Of a stretch of DNA of 64,000 bases, positions 8,063 to 62,067 are shown one piece after another. The position numbers and the translations under genes are program-made. How positions within the stretch are numbered: position 1 is the first letter of the stretch; every line of letters starts with the position of its first letter. The notes under the pieces were generated by a model. The model saw only the letters and a list, made by a program, of their open reading frames with translations. It had not been told where the DNA came from and made no database searches. This DNA is from an uncultured Planctomycetia bacterium (GTDB lineage Bacteria > Omnitrophota > Gorgyraeia > JABMRG01 > JAFGKX01): assembly GCA_964570585.1 (NCBI GenBank), contig CAZMYR010000003.1:22749-86748 (forward strand). Reading direction: 5' to 3'.

Positions 8063-8162
8063 CTTTTTTTAGTACCGTTTACGGTTTCAAAGGGGTAAGT
8101 GTCCCCTAATTCATTCTTTGCTGGGGGGCATTTACCTCTTTGAAACTGTAAACGGTACTTTC

Positions 8163-10662: not shown

Positions 10663-10750
10663 ATGTTGGTGCCATGCACTGCGGTGCCACCCTACGTGGC
10701 AAAACTGTATATTTAAAAGGTAGGGTGGCACCGCAGTGCATGGCACCATT
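10663..10750. repeat. palindromic element family A, copy 1: 28-bp perfect arms TGGTGCCATGCACTGCGGTGCCACCCTAC around a 24-nt loop
   Basis: read directly; fills the rpsN-rpsH spacer; second copy at 13147-13234 has the loop inverted. Confidence 0.85.
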
Positions 10751-13146: not shown

Positions 13147-13234
13147 CCATGTTGGTGCCATGCACTGCGGTGCCACCCTACCTTTTAAATATACAGTTTT
13201 GCCACGTAGGGTGGCACCGCAGTGCATGGCACCA
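13147..13234. repeat. palindromic element family A, copy 2 (same arms as copy 1, loop reverse-complemented); occupies the whole rpsC-rplP spacer and abuts the rpsC stop codon
   Basis: read directly; arms identical to 10667-10748. Confidence 0.85.
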
Positions 13235-15604: not shown

Positions 15605-15895
15605 TTACGTGCTCACCACCTCTATAACGTCGCCTTCTTTTAGTGTGACCATGGCTTTCTTCCAACCGGATGTATGTCCCAATTTATATCTGACTCTACG
15701 AGGTTTCCCTTTCACATTCATGACATTAACAGATACAACTTTTACTTTATGTATATCTTCAACTGCTTTCTTTATCTGTATTTTATTTGCTAATTTATCG
15801 ACGAGGAAAAGATACTTATTCTGCCGCATTAATCTTGTGCCTTTTTCAGTCCTTAATAGGGACTTTATAATATCATAAGATGTCTTTGTCTTCAT
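15605..15895 (-). CDS. rplW: 50S ribosomal protein L23
   Basis: 96 aa, conserved. Confidence 0.9.
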
Positions 15896-15967
15896 CCCGC
15901 ACCTTTTATTTATTCATCCCGGACCTTTTTAATATTACTTTTGAATATTTTAAAGGTGCGGGATTCA
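15893..15967. repeat. palindromic element family D, copy 1 (ATCCCGCACCTTT arms); its arms contain the rplD stop codon and the rplW start codon
   Basis: read directly; second copy at 57671-57748. Confidence 0.8.
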
Positions 15968-16600
15968 TTGCGTCAATCTCTTTTCTAAATTTGTGAAAGC
16001 TGATCTTTCAATAAGAATCTTCTCTGCCAGGATTACTCTATATGCATTGACATCACAACCTCTTAGCACAGCTACTTTCTTTAGGTTGTTTGATGCTTTT
16101 TTCAATTTTTCATTCACCGAATCTACTACAAGTAATAATCTTTCTTTATCAAAATCAAGCTTTAATTTTTTTAATATATCGGTAAAACCTTTAGTCTTAT
16201 GAGAAGCCAATTCTATCTTGTCCAGGATTATAATTTTGTTTTCATTTATTTTATCGTTAAGAGCCGATCGTAATGCCTGTTTAAGTGCCTTTGCGGGTAA
16301 TCTGTAATAATAATCTTTTGGTTTTGGCCCAAAAGTAATACCTCCGCCTCTCCACAAAGGAGATCTTATGCTACCGGCCCTTGCCCTACCTGTACCTTTT
16401 TGTCTCCAAGGTTTTCTGCCTCCGCCCCTGACTTCTGCCCTCGCTTTTGTGTTAGCAGAACCTGCTCGCACATTTGTTTGATACATCAATGCCGTTTCAT
16501 GGACTAATGGCTGATTCACAGAACCATCGAATAGTTTCTGATTTAATTTTATATTTCCTATTCTTTTGCCTTCCTGATTTATTATGTCTAATGTTTTCAT
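15965..16600 (-). CDS. rplD: 50S ribosomal protein L4
   Basis: 211 aa, conserved. Confidence 0.9.
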   Translation of the reverse strand: MKTLDIINQEGKRIGNIKLNQKLFDGSVNQPLVHETALMYQTNVRAGSANTKARAEVRGGGRKPWRQKGTGRARAGSIRSPLWRGGGITFGPKPKDYYYRLPAKALKQALRSALNDKINENKIIILDKIELASHKTKGFTDILKKLKLDFDKERLLLVVDSVNEKLKKASNNLKKVAVLRGCDVNAYRVILAEKILIERSAFTNLEKRLTQ

Positions 16601-18992: not shown

Positions 18993-21053
18993 CTAGAATA
19001 TCTTCTCCATCACGTGTTTGGGAACCTGTTCATAATAAGCAGGTTCCATGGTATAAGTCGCTCTACCCTTGGTAAGATTTCTTAATGCTGTTGCATAGCC
19101 GAACATCTCTGCCAATGGCGCATCCCCTTTTATAACTTTGATATTCCCGCGTTGTTTAATAGATTCAATCCTGCCTCTTCTGGAGTTAAAATCTCCTATA
19201 ACATCTCCCAAATATTCTTCAGGAAGAGCTATCTCTAATTTCATAAATGGTTCTAATAATACAGAATTTCCTTTTCCTAAAGCATCCGAAAGGCCTATTG
19301 AAGCTGCGGTCCTAAACGCTAATTCAGAAGAATCGACTTCGTGAAATGAGCCATCAATCAATCTTACGGATATATCCGTGACAGGATAACCTGCAACAAC
19401 TCCGCTCCTGGATGCTTGCATAATACCTTCTTTTACTGCCGGTATAAATTCTTTCGGTATAACCCCTCCTTTTATTCTACTGGCAAAAGTAACACCTGAA
19501 CCTTTTTCTGCCGGCTCTGCATCAAGTACCACATGAGCGTATTGACCTCTTCCTCCGGTCTGTTGAATAAATTTCGCAGTTGCGCTGGCATGTTTAGTTA
19601 ATGTCTCTTTATAAGCAACCTGGGGCCTGCCTACATTTGCAACCACATTAAACTCTCTAAGCATCCTATCTACTACAACCTCGAGATGTAATTCTCCCAT
19701 ACCCGATATGATCGTCTGCCCTGTATTTTCATCATGTCTTACTTTAAATGAAGGGTCCTCGTCTTGAAATTTCTTTAATGCCAGGGCCAATTTTTCCCGG
19801 TCAGTATTAGACTTTGGCTCTATGGCTAAAAATATGACCGGCTCAGGAAATTGCATACTCTCTAATATAATGGGATGCCTTTCATTGCATATAGTATCGC
19901 CGGTCTTTGTCTCGCGCAGACCAACTGCCGCCGCTATATCGCCGGCATAAACTTCGGGAATTATCCGCTGTTTATCAGCGTGCATTTTTACAATTTTGCC
20001 TACTCTTTCCTTGATTTCTTTCGATGAATTATATATATAACTGCCGGACTTTAATCTGCCGGAATAAACTCTAAAAAATGTCAATTTACCAACAAAAGGA
20101 TCGCTCATTATCTTAAAAATGAGTGCTGAGAATGGCTCATTATTGTCTGGTTTTCTCGAAATCTCTTTGTTTGTTCTTGGTTCAAACCCTTTAATAGGCG
20201 GCACTTCTAAAGGGCTGGGCAGAAAATCACAGATAGCATCAAGTAATGGCTGCACCCCTTTATTTCTTAATGCCGCTCCACAGGTAATTGGAATAAACTT
20301 CGCTTTAATGGTTGATTTACGTATCGCGGCTCTTAATTCATCCGGTGTTATCTCTTCATCATGGATGAACTTTGCCATAATTTCATCGTCTGTATCAGCC
20401 ACTGATTCTATTAGTCTGTGTCTATATTCTTCTACTTTAGATTCCAGCCCATCCGGAATTTTGCCTGATTTATAATTCAGGCCTTCCTCATCTTCATATA
20501 CTATTGCATTCATATTTATAAGGTCTATTATTCCGTTAAAATTTGATTCAACTCCTAAGGGTAATTGAATAGCGGCTGCATTCGCACCTAATCTTTCCCT
20601 TATCTGTTTTACGACCCTAAAGAAATCACTGCCTATTCTGTCCATTTTGTTTATGAAACATATCCTGGGAATTCTATAATAGTCTGCCTGCCGCCAGACT
20701 GTCTCACTTTGTGATTCAACCCCACCTACTCCACAAAATATAACTACCCCTGCGTCCAATACTCGTAGGGAGCGCTCTACCTCAACCGTAAAGTCTACAT
20801 GACCGGGAGTATCCAGTATATTTATGGTGTAATCTTTCCATATACAGGTGGTGCTAGCAGATGTAATGGTTATGCCCCTTTCCTGCTCTTGAGCCATCCA
20901 GTCCATAGTTGCAGTACCTTCGTCTACCTCGCCTAACTTATACACCCTGCCCGTATAATACAGCATTCTTTCAGTAGTGGTAGTTTTACCGGCATCAATG
21001 TGAGCAATGATACCAATGTTTCTTAGTTTTTCTAAATTAGATCTTTTTCTCAT
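18993..21053 (-). CDS. fusA: elongation factor G
   Basis: 686 aa, [12 protein letters not shown] motif. Confidence 0.95.
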
Positions 21054-37286: not shown

Positions 37287-37368
37287 GCCCCGTTAGAAAT
37301 TATGTGATATTATAGTGCATTCTACATGCTATATTTTGTTTAGTATATAAAAAAATTTCTAACGGGGC
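37287..37368. repeat. 15-bp perfect inverted repeat GCCCCGTTAGAAATT...AATTTCTAACGGGGC (family I) flanking a 52-nt AT-rich spacer in the divergent recG/rpmB promoter region
   Basis: read directly; near-identical arms (CCCCGTTACAAATT) occur inside both pilin-like genes. Confidence 0.75.
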
Positions 37369-37407: not shown

Positions 37408-37482
37408 GCACCGTTTGGGAAAGCAAAGTAGCAAATGTAGGGATTACGGGGACACTTGCCCCTTTGCTTTCCCAAACGGTGC
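37408..37482 (+). promoter_or_regulatory. 21-bp perfect hairpin made of two inverted family C motifs, immediately 5' of the rpmB RBS
   Basis: read directly. Confidence 0.55.
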
Positions 37483-37742: not shown

Positions 37743-37885
37743 AAAAAATCCTAAATCCTAAACTCGAAATCCTAAACAAACCCAAAACTCTAAACCCAAA
37801 TGTTCAAAACAGATTGCATAACAATTATGTTTTGAGTTTTGTATTTTGAGTTTGTTTAGAGTTTAGGGTTTAGTGTTTAGGGTTT
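37743..37885. terminator. long imperfect palindrome built from CCTAAA/TTTAGG repeats; bidirectional terminator between convergent rpmB and otsB, right arm overlaps the otsB 3' end
   Basis: read directly. Confidence 0.5.
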
Positions 37886-45229: not shown

Positions 45230-45274
45230 TTGGGACGTCCTGCAGGGGGGGCACCCTGCAGGACGTCCCCAACC
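45230..45274. repeat. palindromic element family B, copy 1 (GGGACGTCCTGCAGGG-N6-CCCTGCAGGACGTCCC)
   Basis: read directly; inverted copy at 51973-52018. Confidence 0.85.
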
Positions 45275-51966: not shown

Positions 51967-52086
51967 CTAGCATGGTTGGGGACGTCCTGCAGGGAGGCAA
52001 CCCTGCAGGACGTCCCCACTACTTACATCAGTCTCCTGCTGAAGGATTATCTTCTCTCTTTTCGGCTTTGGGGTTTTGTTTTTCAT
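51967..52086 (-). pseudogene. duplicated 5' fragment of ruvB (first 17 codons, 52 bp identical to 50846-50897) fused in frame to codons from palindrome B; 39-aa ORF
   Basis: read directly; [20 protein letters not shown] versus Ruv[21 protein letters not shown]. Confidence 0.6.
51973..52018. repeat. palindromic element family B, copy 2 (inverted relative to copy 1)
   Basis: read directly. Confidence 0.85.
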
Positions 52087-52098
52087 ATTTTTTAATGG

Positions 52099-52659
52099 TT
52101 ACTCTAAATAAAGCAAATATGCCTCCCACTTTCCATTATAACTGTCAATAACGTAGGTATCTGTATTAGCAGGAGTAACAGTATCTTCTATGACATAGTG
52201 TCCTTGATTTTTTGGGTCAGTATCATTACTTCGAAATAATATTTGGTACTGGCTTGTTGTTCCATCGTAGAGAACCCTATACTGGCATATTGTTGTATCG
52301 CTTGAAGTTGGTGGTATCTCTATGTTTAATTCATCTTCAGCATTAACATAATCACTGATAGCTTCTGTCCAATCCCAGGGAAAATAACCTCCCTTTTTAT
52401 AATTATAATACCTCTCTGCTGCAAGAATAACCTGTACGGTATTGGGTACCTCCTTCAATTTCGCCCTGGTACGAAATGTTTCAAACTGAGGATACAATAT
52501 TGTAGCAAGAATAGCGATAACAACTGTGACCATTAATAATTCTACTAAGGTAAACCCCGTTACAAATTTACGTTTGCTATTCTTCTTTTGTATGCTTTGG
52601 TTAATTTGTAACGGGGTAAATGAGTTCCTTTTCTTTGGCTTTATATTTTTTTCTTTCAT
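52099..52659 (-). CDS. type IV pilin / pseudopilin-like protein (prepilin-type N-terminal cleavage/methylation domain), 35-aa leader
   Basis: KRKFVTG-FTLVELLMV class III signal; hydrophobic N-terminal helix. Confidence 0.75.
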   Translation of the reverse strand: MKEKNIKPKKRNSFTPLQINQSIQKKNSKRKFVTGFTLVELLMVTVVIAILATILYPQFETFRTRAKLKEVPNTVQVILAAERYYNYKKGGYFPWDWTEAISDYVNAEDELNIEIPPTSSDTTICQYRVLYDGTTSQYQILFRSNDTDPKNQGHYVIEDTVTPANTDTYVIDSYNGKWEAYLLYLE

Positions 52660-52671
52660 ATTCTTTAATGG

Positions 52672-53217
52672 TTATTCTAAATAACCTAGATATTTATCAT
52701 AGGGACTTTCGATAGTATAGTTACGTGTTTGTATAACGCACTCACCTACTTTTTTTTCGTCTTCTGCAGTATTGTCAGCTTTCCGAAAATGTATTGCCCA
52801 GGTACCGGGAGTAGTAGTATTATCCACCCAATATTCGCATACATCTCTAGGAAGAGTTATATTTAATTCATGCTCAACTTCCGCATTGCCATGAGCGCTA
52901 CTAGTATAAACAAAATTATCAGCATCGGCCGCAGTCCAGTCAAAATAAGCACCAATTTTAAAATTATAATACTTCTCTCCTGCAAGAATTAGCTGTATGG
53001 TATTCGGTACTTCCTTCAATTCTGTCCTTATACGAAATGTTTGAAATCGGGGATACATTATTGTAGCAAGAACACCGATAATAACTACGACTATTAATAA
53101 TTCTATTAAGGTAAGCCCCGTTACAAATTTACGTTTGCTATACTTGAAAATATAATTTTTAAATATATTTTGTATGCTTTGGTTAATTTGTAACGGGGTA
53201 AAGGAGTTCCTTTTCAT
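52672..53217 (-). CDS. type IV pilin / pseudopilin-like protein, paralog of the gene at 52099-52659
   Basis: KRKFVTG-LTLIELLIV signal; shared leader KRNSFTPLQINQSIQ. Confidence 0.75.
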   Translation of the reverse strand: MKRNSFTPLQINQSIQNIFKNYIFKYSKRKFVTGLTLIELLIVVVIIGVLATIMYPRFQTFRIRTELKEVPNTIQLILAGEKYYNFKIGAYFDWTAADADNFVYTSSAHGNAEVEHELNITLPRDVCEYWVDNTTTPGTWAIHFRKADNTAEDEKKVGECVIQTRNYTIESPYDKYLGYLE

Positions 53218-53849: not shown

Positions 53850-53859
53850 AAGTATAGGA

Positions 53860-54000
53860 ACGTTTCCAAAATCAAAGAGGCAAATGTAGGAACGTTTCCA
53901 AAATCAAAGAGGCAAATGTCCCCATAAAGGGGACACTTGCCCCTTAGATTTCGGAAACGTTCCTGGGGACACTTGCCCCTTAGATTTCGGAAACGTTCCT
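53860..54000. repeat. composite direct and inverted repeats (AGGAACGTTTCCAAAATCAAAGAGGCAAATGT x2; GGGGACACTTGCCCCTTAGATTTCGGAAACGTTCCT x2) in the ruvC-ruvA spacer
   Basis: read directly. Confidence 0.8.
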
Positions 54001-55293: not shown

Positions 55294-57345
55294 TCACGCT
55301 CCTGAAGCTTCCTCTTTCACTGCCTTCGCCTTCGCTATTATCTGTTGAGCTACCTTATCCGGCACCTGCTCATAACGAGAAAATTTCATTGTGTAGGAAC
55401 CTTTGCCTGCTGTCATAGAACGTAACTCTGTCGCATATTTAAGCATCTCAGCCAAAGGTACCTGTGCTTTTACTATCTGATTTGCACCTTTGGGTTCCAT
55501 TCCCATAATTCTTCCTCTTCGAGAATTTAAATCGCCGGTTATGTTTCCCATAGCATCTTCAGGCACTACTACCTCTACATCCATAATCGGCTCTAATAAC
55601 ACAGGGTTGGCTTGTTTTAATCCATTTTTCATCGCGGTACTTGCTGCAATCTTAAATGCCATTTCGGAGGAATCCACTGTATGAAAGGACCCATCAAAAA
55701 GGGTAACCTTAACACCCGCCACCGGCGCACCGATTAATATCCCTGCTTGCATAGTTGCTTTTACGCCTTTCTCAACGCCGGGAATATACCCTCTTGGTAT
55801 AGCCCCACCGGCAATCTTATCCACAAACTCATAATTTTCGCCTCGAGGAAGCGGTTCAAGCTTAAGATAAACTTCACCATACTGGCCATGGCCTCCTGTC
55901 TGCTTCTTATGTTTATAACTGACCTCGACCTTCTTCCTTATAGTTTCTTTATAGGCCACCTTGGGCGTGCCAATCTCAACCTCAACTTTAAAATTCCTCT
56001 TCAGCCTTTCAATCATAATCTTAAGATGTAAGTCCCCTAATCCCGATACTATCAATTCTTTTGTCTGTTGATTCCTTCCATACTTAAATGTTGGGTCCTC
56101 ACTGCCCAATTTTGAGAGAGCGGTCATTATCCTTTCTTCATCTTGTCTGGTCTTTGGCTCAAGTGATAATGATATAGCAGGCTCCGGCATTTTAATTGTA
56201 TCAAATTCAAGCTGCCTTGATTCGTTGCATATAGTATCACCTGTGGTTGTCTCCTTTAATTTTGCGACTGCAGCTATATCGCCGGCCCGGACCTTGTCTA
56301 TCCCTTCCTGCTCTTTTCCCTTAAGCAGAAATATCTGGCCTATTTTTTCCCTGGCAGATTTATTTACATTATAAAATCCTGTATTGGATGGCAGGCTTCC
56401 GGAAAACACTCTAAAGATGGTAAGTTGTCCGACGTAAGGATCGATGATTGTCTTGAAAACTTGTGCAGCAAAAGGTTCATCAGCGGAAACTTTATATTTT
56501 ATAGGATTGGTTCCATCGGGCGAGGTAGCCTGTATTAGGGCTGCATCTTGTGGCGAAGGAGCAAATTTTATAATACCATTTATAAGCTCATCTACGCCAA
56601 TTCCTTTAGTAGCCGAACCGCAAAATACAGGATGTGTATTGCCTATACTTACTGCCTTTTTAAGGCCATTTATTATTTCATCCTGAGAGAGCTCTTCTCC
56701 CACAAGATATTTTTCGATTAATGCATCATCTGTTTCAGCTATTGCCTCTATAAGCTGCTCTCTATATTTTAGGGCCTTATCTTTATCATCGCCTGAAATA
56801 CTCTCGACGGTAGCCTTATTCAATAAATCAACCACCTTCTCAAAAGAGGTTTCTTTACCTATCGGATATGTAATAGGGACGCAATTTTTTCCAAATTCTT
56901 TCTGCACTGCCTCAATCGTTTTCTCAAAACTTGAATGTTCCTTATCTAACTTATTTATAAATAAAAATGAAGGCTTTTTAGCTTCTTTTAACATATCCCA
57001 CATCCGGGACGTGCCTATCTCTACTCCGTTTACCCCGCATACTAAACACAGCCCACAGCCAGCAGCACGAAGAGATGAAAAAACTCCACCTATAAAATCT
57101 GCATAACCCGGGGTATCTAAAAGATTTATTCTTTTTGAGTCTTTTTCAATGCTAAGCACCTTTGGATCAATCGTAATCTTTCTTTCAATTTCATCCGGGT
57201 TATAATCGCACATACTGGTACCTTCATCAACGCTACCACGTCTTGTGTTTACCTTTGCAGCAAATAGTATAGAATCTATTAAAGATGTCTTTCCGGCACT
57301 CGAATGAGATAAAAATACAATATTTCTTATATCCTTAACATCCAT
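55294..57345 (-). CDS. elongation factor G paralog (EF-G2-like translational GTPase)
   Basis: 683 aa, G-domain motifs, divergent from fusA at 18993. Confidence 0.8.
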   Translation of the reverse strand: MDVKDIRNIVFLSHSSAGKTSLIDSILFAAKVNTRRGSVDEGTSMCDYNPDEIERKITIDPKVLSIEKDSKRINLLDTPGYADFIGGVFSSLRAAGCGLCLVCGVNGVEIGTSRMWDMLKEAKKPSFLFINKLDKEHSSFEKTIEAVQKEFGKNCVPITYPIGKETSFEKVVDLLNKATVESISGDDKDKALKYREQLIEAIAETDDALIEKYLVGEELSQDEIINGLKKAVSIGNTHPVFCGSATKGIGVDELINGIIKFAPSPQDAALIQATSPDGTNPIKYKVSADEPFAAQVFKTIIDPYVGQLTIFRVFSGSLPSNTGFYNVNKSAREKIGQIFLLKGKEQEGIDKVRAGDIAAVAKLKETTTGDTICNESRQLEFDTIKMPEPAISLSLEPKTRQDEERIMTALSKLGSEDPTFKYGRNQQTKELIVSGLGDLHLKIMIERLKRNFKVEVEIGTPKVAYKETIRKKVEVSYKHKKQTGGHGQYGEVYLKLEPLPRGENYEFVDKIAGGAIPRGYIPGVEKGVKATMQAGILIGAPVAGVKVTLFDGSFHTVDSSEMAFKIAASTAMKNGLKQANPVLLEPIMDVEVVVPEDAMGNITGDLNSRRGRIMGMEPKGANQIVKAQVPLAEMLKYATELRSMTAGKGSYTMKFSRYEQVPDKVAQQIIAKAKAVKEEASGA

Positions 57346-57670
57346 CAGTTAGGAAAATTACTTTCTGTTCTGTGTATGAAATTAATTACAGGTGTGAAGT
57401 ATTTCAATATAAAACTAATTATAATAGCGGAGCACCAGTATTGTCAAGCAAAAAGGGATGGTCTTTTGTTGCACTGCGGAGAATGAGTTCTTTAACTTCT
57501 GATAGCCCAACAAATTGGGCAACTAACCATTCTTGTCCACGGTGATGTAATAGCAATGCACAGGGGAAGTTTCTACATAAATCAGCCAGGCCACTGGAGT
57601 ACTTATCTGTAATATCCTTGAGCCTGATGGTATATTCTGCAAGCTCTTTAATATTGCTGTGTTTTTGTTA

Positions 57671-57748
57671 TTCATCCCGCACCTTCCTTCATTCCCGCTT
57701 ACCTTCTTAATATTGCAAATTTGAATACAAAGAAGGTGCGGGATTCAT
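57671..57748. repeat. palindromic element family D, copy 2; right arm overlaps the stop codon of ORF 57745-58035
   Basis: read directly. Confidence 0.8.
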
Positions 57749-58035
57749 ATATTCATCTCCACTTTCTTTCTTAATCTATGTAAATCCTCCACTATCTTAT
57801 CAATGTTGACTACGCGTTTTATCTTAGGGAGCCCAAAGGCGACCATCCTCACCCTCGCCGGGCCTATCACACTTTTATTTATTGTGTCTTTATCAATCGC
57901 TGTTTGTTTTTGCCAGGCTTGTGTAATCACCGGAGTTACTGCACTAAAACCAGCAGCAAGCGCTGGTAACGCCTTTCCGTTTGACAAAACTTGAGATAAA
58001 ATAATTATAACGATGATAAATTTAATCAGTCTCAT
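57745..58035 (-). CDS. small secreted hypothetical protein (signal peptide plus about 70 aa)
   Basis: N-terminal hydrophobic signal MRLIKFIIVIIILSQVLS. Confidence 0.4.
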   Translation of the reverse strand: MRLIKFIIVIIILSQVLSNGKALPALAAGFSAVTPVITQAWQKQTAIDKDTINKSVIGPARVRMVAFGLPKIKRVVNIDKIVEDLHRLRKKVEMNI

Positions 58036-58422: not shown

Positions 58423-58553
58423 TTAAACTTCCGCTCTATTCTTTCGGCAGCCCGACTCTCCCAGACTCGTGGGACTCGTAGCTTTGCGTCCCATTCTTAC
58501 GAATGGTTTGCCTTTATCGAGAATTTCCTTTAAAAGAGCTTTTTGTTTCTACA

Positions 58554-60579: not shown

Positions 60580-62067
60580 TTATCTGTGCATTTTGAAATT
60601 CCATACAACAAAATTGCTTTCTATATCTTCAACATGCAAGCGGTAAATATCATACATAGCTTTTTCTAAAACTATACCTGAGTTTAATTTCTCCAGCAAT
60701 TTCTTAAATTTGTATTTTCCGTATCTGTCTATGAGATATTTTAAAAATAGTTTTGACAAGAGATAACCCGATCTTATTTTTTTATAACCGGCTGACGAAA
60801 ATAAACTATCTATCCGATTTAATTTAAAAGGTTCTTCTTTTTTAAAAATCTCATTCAATAAATTTTTATCCTGCCGGTTTAAACTTCGCTCCGGTTCTGC
60901 TAGCTGTGCAAATCCTTCATGTAACCAAACAGGTATATTTTTAGGATATAATATATGCAATACTGCATGCCCATATTCATGGTATATGACTCTTCTTGGA
61001 CCTTGCTGCTCTCCTAATACATCTCCTACCCTTAAGCGAACTTTACCATCATATAAGCCTAAGGTCCAATCTAACTTCTGGGTCGCCTGTCTAAATTGTT
61101 CTGCGGTGTAAATAATTACTGTAACCTTTTTATCGGTAAAAAAGCCAAAATCACTCTTCACCTTGCGGCGGGCATCTTCCAACATATCTATTATATCCCA
61201 TACTAAATCCGGGTCCCTTTCGCCTTCAAACCTGATATCGAAATGGGCACGGGCGCGAGTCTTAAAATCCTCCTCAATCTCAAGCTCCCTGGTTGCTTTG
61301 GCAAGTGTTTCTTTAAGGCCGGAGATGGTAGAATCTAAACTTAATGCCTTATTCCAATACTCAACAGCTTTTTTAAGTTCATTCTGCTGATAATAAATAT
61401 TGCCTAAGAATACATATGCAGCAGGTTTGCTAGAATCATAATCTATGCAATCTCTGGCTAAATTTAATGCTTCCTGTAAGCGCCCTATATTAAAACTTAT
61501 CTTGGCCTCTTGAAGGGTTGTATTATATATATTGTCCTTAAAAGTAATATTTTCCGGATCGAATTTCAGCGCTTCTTTAAAATTGCTTAAGGCAAGGTCA
61601 TATCTGCCTTTTTCAAAAAGAGATAATGCATAATTGTTGTAATAAATGGCAATTTGTTTAGGATAGGCAGAACCGGAGGGGTCTTTATCATATGCCCTTT
61701 TTTCATATCTTATGGCATCTAACCATAATCTATCTTTCGCCAATTGCCCCGCTAAATAATGGCAGGCAGTGCTTAAATTTTTGTTTATAATCTGGTTATC
61801 CGGCTCTAGGTCGCTGGCTGATTCAAATGCAATAACGGCATTTTCATAATCGCCGGCTTCCATATATCTTAAGCCCTGCTGGTTTACCCCGTTAGAAGTT
61901 TCTTCACTGCCTTCAAAATATGAACTTCTAACGGGGTTTAATTCAGAAACCTCGTCGGCACTGGCAGCAGTTATAAGACCGGCTAATATAAAAAATAAGA
62001 CAATTATTGTAAACAAAAAAGGCCCCGAATTTTCGGGGCCTTTTTTCTGAAGGGATTTATATCCCAT
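60580..62067 (-). CDS. membrane-anchored TPR-repeat protein with C-terminal HExxH...E zinc-metallopeptidase-like domain
   Basis: N-terminal TM, TPR motifs, HEYGHAVLH...HEGFAQLAE. Confidence 0.6.
   Translation of the reverse strand: MGYKSLQKKGPENSGPFLFTIIVLFFILAGLITAASADEVSELNPVRSSYFEGSEETSNGVNQQGLRYMEAGDYENAVIAFESASDLEPDNQIINKNLSTACHYLAGQLAKDRLWLDAIRYEKRAYDKDPSGSAYPKQIAIYYNNYALSLFEKGRYDLALSNFKEALKFDPENITFKDNIYNTTLQEAKISFNIGRLQEALNLARDCIDYDSSKPAAYVFLGNIYYQQNELKKAVEYWNKALSLDSTISGLKETLAKATRELEIEEDFKTRARAHFDIRFEGERDPDLVWDIIDMLEDARRKVKSDFGFFTDKKVTVIIYTAEQFRQATQKLDWTLGLYDGKVRLRVGDVLGEQQGPRRVIYHEYGHAVLHILYPKNIPVWLHEGFAQLAEPERSLNRQDKNLLNEIFKKEEPFKLNRIDSLFSSAGYKKIRSGYLLSKLFLKYLIDRYGKYKFKKLLEKLNSGIVLEKAMYDIYRLHVEDIESNFVVWNFKMHR

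Follow-up and report, generated by a model that had tools for sequence, protein, structure and literature searches.

The palindrome between rplD and rplW in the window (the whole 64,000-nt stretch of DNA analysed here) is a 73-nt insertion lying between two copies of ATGAA, and it leaves both ribosomal proteins unaltered. We consider it probable that this palindrome is a non-autonomous, MITE-like derivative of a tiny selfish element that targets start codons and whose full-length form encodes a GIY-YIG nuclease.

A hairpin at the rplD-rplW junction

The genes around both palindromes of the window are on the minus strand, and the first palindrome, copy 1, is located inside the S10 operon, which in the window comprises tuf, rpsJ, rplC, rplD, rplW, rplB and onward. 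In sense, from 15968 to 15891, copy 1 reads ATGAATCCCGCACCTTTAAAATATTCAAAAGTAATATTAAAAAGGTCCGGGATGAATAAATAAAAGGTGCGGGATGAA and is organised as ATGAA-TCCCGCACCTTT-AAAATATTCAAAAGTAATATTAAA-AAGGTCCGGGATGAAT-AAATA-AAAGGTGCGGG-ATGAA. The TGA stop codon of rplD occupies 15967-15965 and the ATG of rplW 15895-15893, with a gap of 69 nt between stop and start; in most bacteria the rplD-rplW spacer is 0 nt. The rplD-rplW sequence is identical across three independent assemblies and, in consequence, the hairpin is not an assembly artefact. The features of the junction are as follows.

15891..15968, minus strand: copy 1, whole unit including both ATGAA direct repeats; a 73-nt insertion relative to the empty site
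15964..15968, minus strand: 5′ ATGAA repeat; it includes the TGA that ends rplD (15965-15967) and the original rplW start, which now opens a mini-ORF
15952..15964, minus strand: left arm ATCCCGCACCTTT, 5′ half of the 13-bp stem; its AAT CCC GCA CCT reads NPAP in the mini-ORF
15906..15968, minus strand: mini-ORF encoding MNPAPLKYSKVILKRSGMNK, from the old start codon through the left arm to a TAA stop (15906-15908) 10 nt before the rplW ATG; the last base of the TAA is the first base of the right arm
15912..15928, minus strand: degenerate inner version of the right arm together with ATGAAT (AAAGGTCCGGGATGAAT), matching the nested tail of the GIY-YIG element at locus L107
15894..15906, minus strand: right arm AAAGGTGCGGGAT, with SD-like AAGGTG (15900-15905), spacer CGGG and the AT of the rplW ATG (15893-15895)
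15891..15895, minus strand: 3′ ATGAA repeat, with the working rplW start codon
15965..16600, minus strand: rplD (L4), 211 aa, C-terminus unaltered by the insertion
15605..15895, minus strand: rplW (L23), 96 aa, N-terminus identical to that of element-free relatives

RNA folding of copy 1 yields a perfect 13-bp stem (AUCCCGCACCUUU/AAAGGUGCGGGAU) that begins immediately 3′ of the UGA and encloses a loop of 47 nt, with a folding energy of -27.3 kcal/mol (z -4.5) that was reached by none of 200 shuffled sequences. Within the 3′ arm, an SD-like AAGGUG is followed, after a spacer of 4 nt, by the AU of the AUG. The initial annotation had described, at this junction and at a second one in the window, a palindrome combined with a stop and a start codon, and both the coordinates (a span of 75 nt from TGA to ATG in either copy) and the folding (z -4.5 and -6.7) bear this out. 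Its statement that the rplW start and the purine-rich sequence before it are enclosed in a perfect 13-bp stem also agrees with the folding. It had placed both codons within the arms, which is right for the start, whose AU belongs to the 3′ arm, and wrong for the stop, which adjoins the stem instead of being part of it. Besides, the direct repeat at the ends is ATGAA and so extends beyond the TGA and ATG given there, and each copy contains an additional inner, degenerate copy of the 3′ arm (15928-15912 and 57706-57687).

Could such a structure simply be a palindrome that arose by chance, an intrinsic terminator or a stem-loop that stabilises the mRNA? A stem so strong and rich in G+C, in an A+T-rich genome, would be in keeping with a terminator, and T-runs do follow some copies with the same arms in Patescibacteria. 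However, the stem is placed inside an operon, directly at a start codon, its loop is long, the sequence after it in sense is GAAGACAAAG and not a T-run, and our scan detected no sense-strand terminator there. Neither the shuffling result nor the existence of hundreds of homologous copies is compatible with a chance palindrome, and the probability that we give to this whole group of explanations is negligible.

The hairpin is an insertion with a duplicated target

By its L4 protein, the window belongs to Candidatus Omnitrophota. Relatives with 97, 94, 91 and 74% identity in L4 have a plain ATGA overlap of rplD and rplW and no element, from which it follows that the window junction carries a 73-nt insertion. 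The empty sites in loci L117-L121 read ...GACGCAATGAAGACAAAG..., whereas the window reads ...GACGCAATGAA(TCCC...GGGATGAA)GACAAAG..., the insertion being in parentheses. In the same way, the junction ...GAGATTGACGCAATGAAGACAAAGACATCTTATGAT... of relative L119 aligns with ...GAGATTGACGCAATGAA(TCCCGCACC...GGTGCGGGATGAA)GACAAAGACATCTTATGAT... in the window. Duplicated target accounts for the rplD stop, the old start and the TG of the new start; the A of that new start is contributed by the element as its last base, and rplW now has a rebuilt start preceded by the SD-like sequence of the right arm. Two further filled and empty pairs come from related genomes: Sua5 and rpiB overlap through ATGA in L125 and are separated by a decayed element in L126, and the junction between SHMT and dCMP deaminase is filled in L125 and empty in L126.

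Across the family, the tetranucleotide flanking the element covaries at the two ends (TGAG/TGAG, TGGA/TGGA, TGTA/TGTA, TACA/TACA and TAAA/TAAA), which indicates a true target duplication of about 4 bp. In copies situated on a downstream start, A is the usual base before the 5′ TGAA, G or T is found there on occasion and C never, a mirror of start-codon usage, and on the 3′ side the element supplies the initial base of the start codon, A or G depending on the subfamily. A duplication of 4 bp (TGAA) would fit the subfamily ending in GTGAA as well as the covarying cases, and for the window copies the duplication may be of 5 bp (ATGAA).

An alternative view is that the host itself evolved the hairpin as a regulatory or coupling device of the S10 operon, one that sets L23 synthesis relative to L4. 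The rplW SD and AUG are indeed masked by the stem, the operon is essential and highly expressed, and both proteins are intact. Against this view, the relatives with 97-74% identical L4 have the ATGA overlap in place of the hairpin, a target duplication is present, and the same element occurs between unrelated gene pairs in many phyla; furthermore, Rfam has no match to the element, either in the window at the gathering threshold or in six element-bearing loci at E≤1. The empty sites together with the spread over unrelated junctions largely refute a host-evolved hairpin, which we regard as highly improbable.

A second copy in the same window

Copy 2 runs in sense from 57748 to 57671. It separates a 96-aa ORF from one of 50 aa, and the small operon to which they belong follows a c-di-GMP-I-GGC riboswitch. 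ORF 57745-58035 ends with a stop at 57747-57745, the ATG of ORF 57523-57675 is at 57675-57673, and RNA folding gives a 16-bp stem (-36.3 kcal/mol, z -6.7). It is identical to the element of L107 over ATGAATCCCGCACCTTCTTTGTATTCAAA. Its features are as follows.

57671..57748, minus strand: full extent of copy 2, bounded on either side by an ATGAAT direct repeat; over the first 29 nt it is identical to the 5′ end of the GIY-YIG-bearing element of L107
57728..57744, minus strand: left arm (ATCCCGCACCTTCTTTG)
57707..57748, minus strand: mini-ORF 1, 13 codons, encoding MNPAPSLYSNLQY followed by a stop
57687..57706, minus strand: inner degenerate right arm (GAAGGTAAGCGGGAATGAAG), which gives the SD-like GAAGGT and the ATG of mini-ORF 2
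57672..57692, minus strand: mini-ORF 2, encoding MKEGAG followed by a stop; it crosses the right arm, ending in a TGA that forms ATGA with the downstream start
57674..57686, minus strand: right arm (GAAGGTGCGGGAT); it includes an SD-like sequence and the first two bases, AT, of the start codon (57673-57675)
57745..58035, minus strand: upstream 96-aa ORF, conserved in relatives, stop at 57745-57747; no Pfam family matches it
57523..57675, minus strand: downstream 50-aa ORF, a conserved small protein of 49-61 aa in relatives

The conservation of this last ORF contradicts its earlier description as degraded. No exact empty site for copy 2 was found in four relatives whose upstream protein is 57-86% identical, and the spacers of these relatives differ, being 9-63 nt long.

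A profile of the family detects exactly two copies in the 64-kb window (E 1e-13 and 5e-14), and the 13-mer of the arm alone is weakly above chance there (5 matches, 1.47 expected). The profile scores 48-49 bits on the sense strand versus 30-34 bits on the opposite one, and the sub-terminal boxes TATTCAA/TTGAATA are themselves inverted repeats, which blurs the orientation of the loop. Other REP-like palindromes are also present in the window, one of them with GTAGGG. Finally, 9 nt of the arms also occur in the ends of IS5 (GGAAGGTGCG...), where they are oriented the other way relative to the element terminus, and we treated this likeness as a coincidence.

The family recurs at start and stop codons

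The same arms are found at more than 230 loci in Omnitrophota, Planctomycetota, Patescibacteria and further groups. Species-representative genomes scanned for exact arms gave at least 113 loci in several phyla, namely Omnitrophota, Planctomycetota (Phycisphaerae, Sedimentisphaerales and Planctomycetales), Patescibacteria, Nitrospirota and others, with at least 3-6 loci per genome in several MAGs and two in the 64-kb window. Since the arms were set by the search patterns, their conservation is partly a matter of ascertainment.

Neighbouring stops and starts were tallied, using ORFs of at least 50 codons, for 119 copies among the matches listed, the two of the window included. An upstream stop at the 5′ end and a downstream start at the 3′ end, the arrangement seen in one subfamily, occur together in 29 of these copies; a downstream start is present in 51, 22 of which have the start only; and 56 have neither. 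The copies of this last class come mostly from other subfamilies, notably those in Patescibacteria, whose palindromic ends are longer (TTTATCCCGC...GCGGGATAAA or CGAATTAATCCCGC...GCGGGATAAGTTCG). A second, independent sample came from a metagenome scan whose pattern consisted only of the left end and the sub-terminal box. Here, 66 of 71 distinct sense copies lie on the start of a downstream ORF, and 36 lie also on an upstream stop. At the same metagenome loci, candidate start codons account for at most 25% of the TGAA sites outside long ORFs, so that the association with start codons exceeds what TGAA availability and the purging of in-gene insertions would produce. The idea of the initial annotation that the element can be copied between unrelated gene pairs is therefore upheld by both samples. 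The coincidence of the arms with stops and starts, for which a genome-wide count had been proposed, extends far beyond the window copies and does not embrace the family as a whole, given the 56 of 119 listed copies that lie away from junctions.

Full-length forms encode a single-domain GIY-YIG protein

Locus L063 contains two units of about 300 nt between the same arms, each coding for a protein of about 90 aa, and a local iterative search found the same protein between the arms of L107. The arm-bounded ORFs of both loci match the GIY-YIG catalytic domain (Pfam PF01541, E 7e-15 to 2e-17); the nearest solved structures are the UPF0213 entries 1zg2 (E 2.6e-6) and 1ywl (E 7.8e-5), and NCBIfam returned GIY-YIG-type matches only, all of them sub-threshold. 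The GIY-YIG proteins of related loci, 85-115 aa long, consist of this single domain and no other. The 64-kb window itself contains no GIY-YIG gene.

The arms turned out to be part of this gene. A protein search, independent of the DNA pattern, retrieved 94 homologues, mostly from Omnitrophota and Sedimentisphaerales. The C-terminus ...EGAG, present in 31 of the 94, is the right arm read as GAA GGT GCG GGA TGA, and many homologues start with MNPAPS(L/Q)YS.MYHVYLL, that is, ATG followed by the left arm as AAT CCC GCA CCT TCT. In at least 31 protein clusters, then, the arms are the first and last codons of the GIY-YIG ORF itself. Full-length copies are wedged in operons with 4-nt overlaps on both sides, as in dCMP deaminase|GIY-YIG|NrdR and RND adaptor|GIY-YIG|RND pump. 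Their ends are ATGAACCCCGCACCTTCT...AGAAGGTGCGGGGTGAA, and the downstream gene in that subfamily has now a GTG start.

The window copies have both ends in common with these full-length elements, the shared stretches being about 29 nt (5′) and about 20 nt (3′), and the order of the window copies (left arm, loop, inner right arm, right arm) is that of the nested tail of L107. Full-length forms are rare, with about 2-3 among 125 left ends, and those of short or middle size prevail, which is the usual ratio between a parent and its miniature derivatives. The peptides of the mini-ORFs keep fragments of the GIY-YIG protein, for example MNPAPSKYSVYHVYLLKSRKDDSLYIGYTSEKIEQREGAG, and several are visibly in-frame internal deletions of the nuclease. 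Judging from these shared ends and fragments, the short copies are evidently internal-deletion derivatives of the full-length GIY-YIG element. In addition, no ORF other than that of the GIY-YIG protein was found between the arms, and the arms themselves belong to that ORF, which suggests that this protein may be what mobilises the family.

An ordinary MITE mobilised in trans by a DDE-type transposase with the same terminal repeats, with the GIY-YIG gene as a passenger or as an adopter of the ends, would explain part of these observations. Small size, perfect terminal inverted repeats and a duplication of 4-5 bp are classic MITE traits, and a target duplication of that length is more typical of DDE transposases. 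To our knowledge, GIY-YIG enzymes are DNA-cutting nucleases, not known for strand transfer nor as transposases. Nevertheless, arm scans of all loci revealed no unit longer than about 430 nt and no transposase, although more than 230 loci were covered; the only ORF that the arms enclose is GIY-YIG, they are its end codons in the clusters mentioned, and the deletion derivatives keep GIY-YIG fragments. We consider this explanation unlikely.

The same arm-bounded ORFs bear on a palindrome of the REP/REPIN type or derived from IS200/IS605, moved as single-stranded DNA by a Y1 (HUH) transposase, for which the apparent duplication would be a required target plus a matching element end. Hairpin-forming ends beside a fixed short sequence agree with it, as do the REP-like palindromes found elsewhere in the window, that with GTAGGG included, and the same analogy is drawn in the paper describing Ssn nucleases (PMC11893778). 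Yet no Y1 transposase ORF is tied to the arms at any locus, all arm-bounded ORFs being GIY-YIG, and the covarying end tetranucleotide denotes duplication of a variable target and not a fixed end of the element. This makes such an origin very unlikely, and a derivative of a GIY-YIG element continues to be our preferred reading.

Relay mini-ORFs cross the element

The 5′ ATGAA keeps the old start codon with its original ribosome-binding site. In one length class of copies, which we call frame-compatible, the old ATG is in frame with the TGA that overlaps the new ATG, so that a relay ORF might run across the whole element. In the genome set, this frame is open in 20 of 25 copies of the class among the matches listed, when 2.9 are expected from shuffled loops (maximum 10 in 2000 shuffles), with 1 of 25 open in the other frames. 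The independent metagenome set has it open in 30 of 39 copies (2.8 expected, maximum 9) and none of the 39 open in the other frames, and the frame-compatible class is over-represented (39 of 71). These counts show that selection has kept the relay frames open. In this way a single ATGA junction becomes a pair, separated by the nuclease or by a relay mini-cistron.

The initial annotation had interpreted the palindrome as a sign of obligatory translational coupling or as a regulated junction module. In the light of the relay ORFs (20/25 and 30/39, against about 3 expected), coupling is supported and translation through or into the element evidently matters, but a regulated junction device of the host is at odds with the empty sites of relatives. 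Both window copies have a period of 73 nt and fall outside the class with a complete relay frame; hence, for these two copies, coupling is argued only from the geometry of their short ORFs.

A model for insertion without disruption

How might an essential operon accommodate such an insertion? According to our model, the full-length form is an element of about 300 bp whose single ORF encodes a single-domain GIY-YIG nuclease, and whose terminal inverted repeats are the first codons (ATG AAT CCC GCA CCT TCT) and the last codons (GAA GGT GCG GGA TGA) of that ORF. Insertion of the family is into translation start codons, very often into the ATGA stop/start overlaps of operons, with duplication of TGAA (seen as ATGAA). 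The 5′ duplicate retains the upstream stop and the old start codon with the original ribosome-binding site, and the 3′ duplicate, together with the last base of the element (A or G) and the SD-like AAGGTG, makes up a new ribosome-binding site and start. With the stop kept and the start rebuilt, both host proteins remain unaltered.

At the RNA level, the paired arms are predicted to mask the new SD and AUG. Ribosomes that terminate at the upstream gene, or that initiate at the old ATG, would enter the 5′ arm and melt the stem. They would then translate the relay mini-ORF or the nuclease up to the TGA overlapping the new ATG, or else stop a few nucleotides short of it (10 nt in window copy 1). 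The right arm thus freed would permit translation of the downstream gene, either by re-initiation or by fresh initiation on AAGGUG-N4-AUG. Since it is the upstream ribosome that would melt the stem, downstream translation would stay coupled to upstream translation. In the full-length element, the same geometry would have the nuclease expressed from the signals of the host gene itself.

Comparison with known systems

Bacterial MITEs, such as the Correia elements of Neisseria, are short, non-coding, multi-copy sequences with a stable fold that are tolerated in transcription units, and Chunjie of Geobacter reportedly inserts in operons without disrupting them. The elements described here resemble MITEs in being short and non-coding, with perfect arms of 13-17 bp, a target duplication, empty sites and a longer coding parent with the same ends. 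They differ in that the parent is a GIY-YIG nuclease and not a DDE transposase, that the target is a start codon, and that the element brings an SD and the first base of the new start, often along with an open relay ORF. Our literature searches found nothing on this element in Omnitrophota, nor on MITEs that carry start and stop codons. Rickettsia palindromic elements (RPEs) are mobile palindromes that reside inside coding sequences and become protein segments. Like them, the present elements are palindromic, translated and tolerated by means of frame compatibility; unlike them, they lie between cistrons, with a mini-cistron of their own bounded by ATGA junctions. As for the RNA, coupling in MS2 coat-replicase and in E. 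coli rpmI-rplT operates through ribosome-mediated unmasking of a sequestered start. There, as here, the downstream SD and AUG are held in a long-range stem whose other strand is crossed by upstream ribosomes, but in our case the device arrives ready-made on a mobile element instead of having evolved in place.

In T4-like phages, free-standing genes for GIY-YIG and HNH homing endonucleases (seg and mob) are wedged between host genes; the start of T4 mobE overlaps the upstream stop (UAAUGA), suggesting translational coupling, and RNA hairpins sequester ribosome-binding sites (PMC2988022). These selfish nuclease genes share with our elements the stop/start overlaps and the hairpins that hide ribosome-binding sites. 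However, the phage enzymes have DNA-binding domains and home to the cognate allele, whereas here only the catalytic domain is present, and the seg and mob genes have no inverted-repeat ends, target duplication or miniature derivatives, whereas here one family occupies many unrelated junctions.

The closest known system is that of Ssn, single-domain GIY-YIG nucleases of about 94 aa (clade cd10448) that are specific for single-stranded DNA and cut it at defined sites beside their repeats (Chenal et al. 2025, Nat Commun, PMC11893778). The ssn genes are flanked by short hairpin repeats (NTS: CGTCATTCCCGCGMAVGCGGGAATCYRG), of which hundreds of gene-less copies also exist, and the authors liken NTS-ssnA-NTS to an insertion sequence (PMC11893778). 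In both systems, a single-domain GIY-YIG gene of about 90-100 aa (found here in related loci and absent from the window) lies between inverted repeats that form hairpins, and gene-less copies are many, with the variation that here each side of the gene is one arm of a single long inverted repeat. The cores of the repeats are also alike (ATTCCCGCG...CGCGGGAAT in NTS and ATCCCGCACC...GGTGCGGGAT here). The published pattern of the Ssn-related motifs (SRM), HGTCWYN(0-2)YYVSBRHN(0-5)WNVSBRGN(0-2)RNCYNB, matches an NTS control and has no match in the window, L063, L107, L122, L125 or L126. Other differences are that the arms are here half-palindromes, 35-60 nt or a whole gene apart and inside the ORF, and that insertion takes place at start codons, with duplication of TGAA and rebuilding of the ribosome-binding site. 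The Ssn paper does not mention start codons, operons, target sites or their duplication, or Omnitrophota and the other phyla considered here (PMC11893778). In view of these differences, we file the element as one that would work like Ssn/SRM and do not claim its membership.

More tentatively, and with doubts that outweigh our confidence, we put forward that the unit of about 300 bp might be an autonomous element of a new mechanistic class, the smallest known in bacteria, in which an Ssn-like nuclease would mobilise both the unit and its gene-less derivatives. Start codons would be targeted in order to hijack the promoter and ribosome-binding site of the host, and translation would be passed on through ATGA and the built-in SD.

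Implications

The comparison of filled and empty sites constitutes the first evidence of this kind for the mobility of a GIY-YIG-plus-hairpin-repeat element, which in the Ssn paper was an analogy only. It also reveals an unusual route for harmless insertion, even into an essential ribosomal-protein operon, in which the element lands on the start codon, keeps the stop, provides its own SD and the first base of the start, and lets translation continue through a relay ORF. The family accounts for odd intergenic hairpins with start and stop codons and for many spurious ORFs of 20-30 codons (MNPAPS...EGAG) in Omnitrophota, Planctomycetota and other uncultured phyla, and it draws attention to systematic changes of start codon (ATG to GTG) and to mis-annotated N-termini of GIY-YIG genes. 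The presence of the same arms in distant phyla suggests that the family has spread horizontally between lineages of groundwater and sediment. If the nuclease is the mobilising enzyme, the full-length element would represent a compact, sequence-directed DNA insertion system.

Start codons and the GIY-YIG reading frame

Insertion of elements of the CCCCGC/GCGGGG subfamily, whose end supplies a G, changes the start codon of the downstream gene to GTG, as seen in related genomes carrying full-length GIY-YIG elements or filled and empty sites (L125/L126, 6290-6303) and at many loci of the metagenome scan, NrdR being one example (GGGGTGAAGTGTCCG). The N-terminus of the GIY-YIG protein itself varies between gene callers, which choose either the ATG within the arm (MNPAPS...) or an internal MYHVYLL. 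One of the compared loci (L071, 2166-2405, minus strand) carries another GIY-YIG subtype, an ORF (MFVYILKSLKDNSLYVGSTKN...) that lacks the bounding arms and has repeated tRNA-like sequence (GGCTCAGTTTGGCTAGAGCG) on its flanks.

Arm cores in Patescibacteria

Identical 11-nt arm cores were found in genomes of the candidate phyla radiation (L005, L006, L008, L029, L030, L034, L098 and other Patescibacteria loci). The loops of these copies are entirely different, their palindromic ends are longer (TTTATCCCGC...GCGGGATAAA) and a T-run often lies 3′ of them; they are usually placed past TAA stops and not at starts. They may belong to the element family itself, or they may stem from another GIY-YIG lineage with a related repeat.

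Other palindromes in the window

A second palindrome family is present in two copies, at sites where the genes lie on the minus strand, and further repeats occur in the window:

13153-13234 and 10667-10748, second family, perfect 29-nt arms TGGTGCCATGCACTGCGGTGCCACCCTAC / GTAGGGTGGCACCGCAGTGCATGGCACCA
53856-54000, 8071-8159 and 37408-37482, third family, single and tandem hairpins, AGGAACGTTTCC..AAAGAGGCAAATGTCCCC / GGGGACACTTGCC..
52554-52617, 53116-53198, 61886-61937 and 37287-37368, small family, on ACCCCGTTA..TAACGGGGT
45232-45269 and 51977-52018, small family, on GGGACGTCCTGCAGGG
37746-37885, imperfect 55-nt inverted repeat, short units of AAATCCTAAA / TTTAGGGTTT type

Because the 24-nt loops of the two second-family copies are mutual reverse complements, these copies lie in flipped orientation. 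The GTAGGG of this family is REP-like. The rpsC|rplP copy abuts the rpsC stop on one side and leaves 13 nt to the rplP start on the other; the remaining copy starts 4 nt beyond the stop codon of an ORF of 61 aa.

The riboswitch operon around copy 2

The second copy of the mini-element hairpin (57671-57748) is located within a small operon headed by a riboswitch, and the window holds two EF-G-like genes:

58442-58521, minus strand, c-di-GMP-I-GGC riboswitch (72 bits, E 4e-15)
55294-57345 and 18993-21053, minus strand, EF-G-like genes (683 and 686 aa)

The operon encodes three unannotated proteins of 119, 96 and 50 aa, for which no Pfam family was found, and is kept in relatives, where it adjoins an EF-G paralogue. 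In a relative that is 86% identical (L134, 981-1045), the spacer at the site of copy 2 is a different one, 63 nt long, and contains a small hairpin of its own (GAAGCCCAGAAGCTTCGGGGC). The second EF-G paralogue lies immediately 3′ of the operon, as it does in relatives L129 and L132. The junction occupied by copy 2 is a hotspot, with variable inserts.
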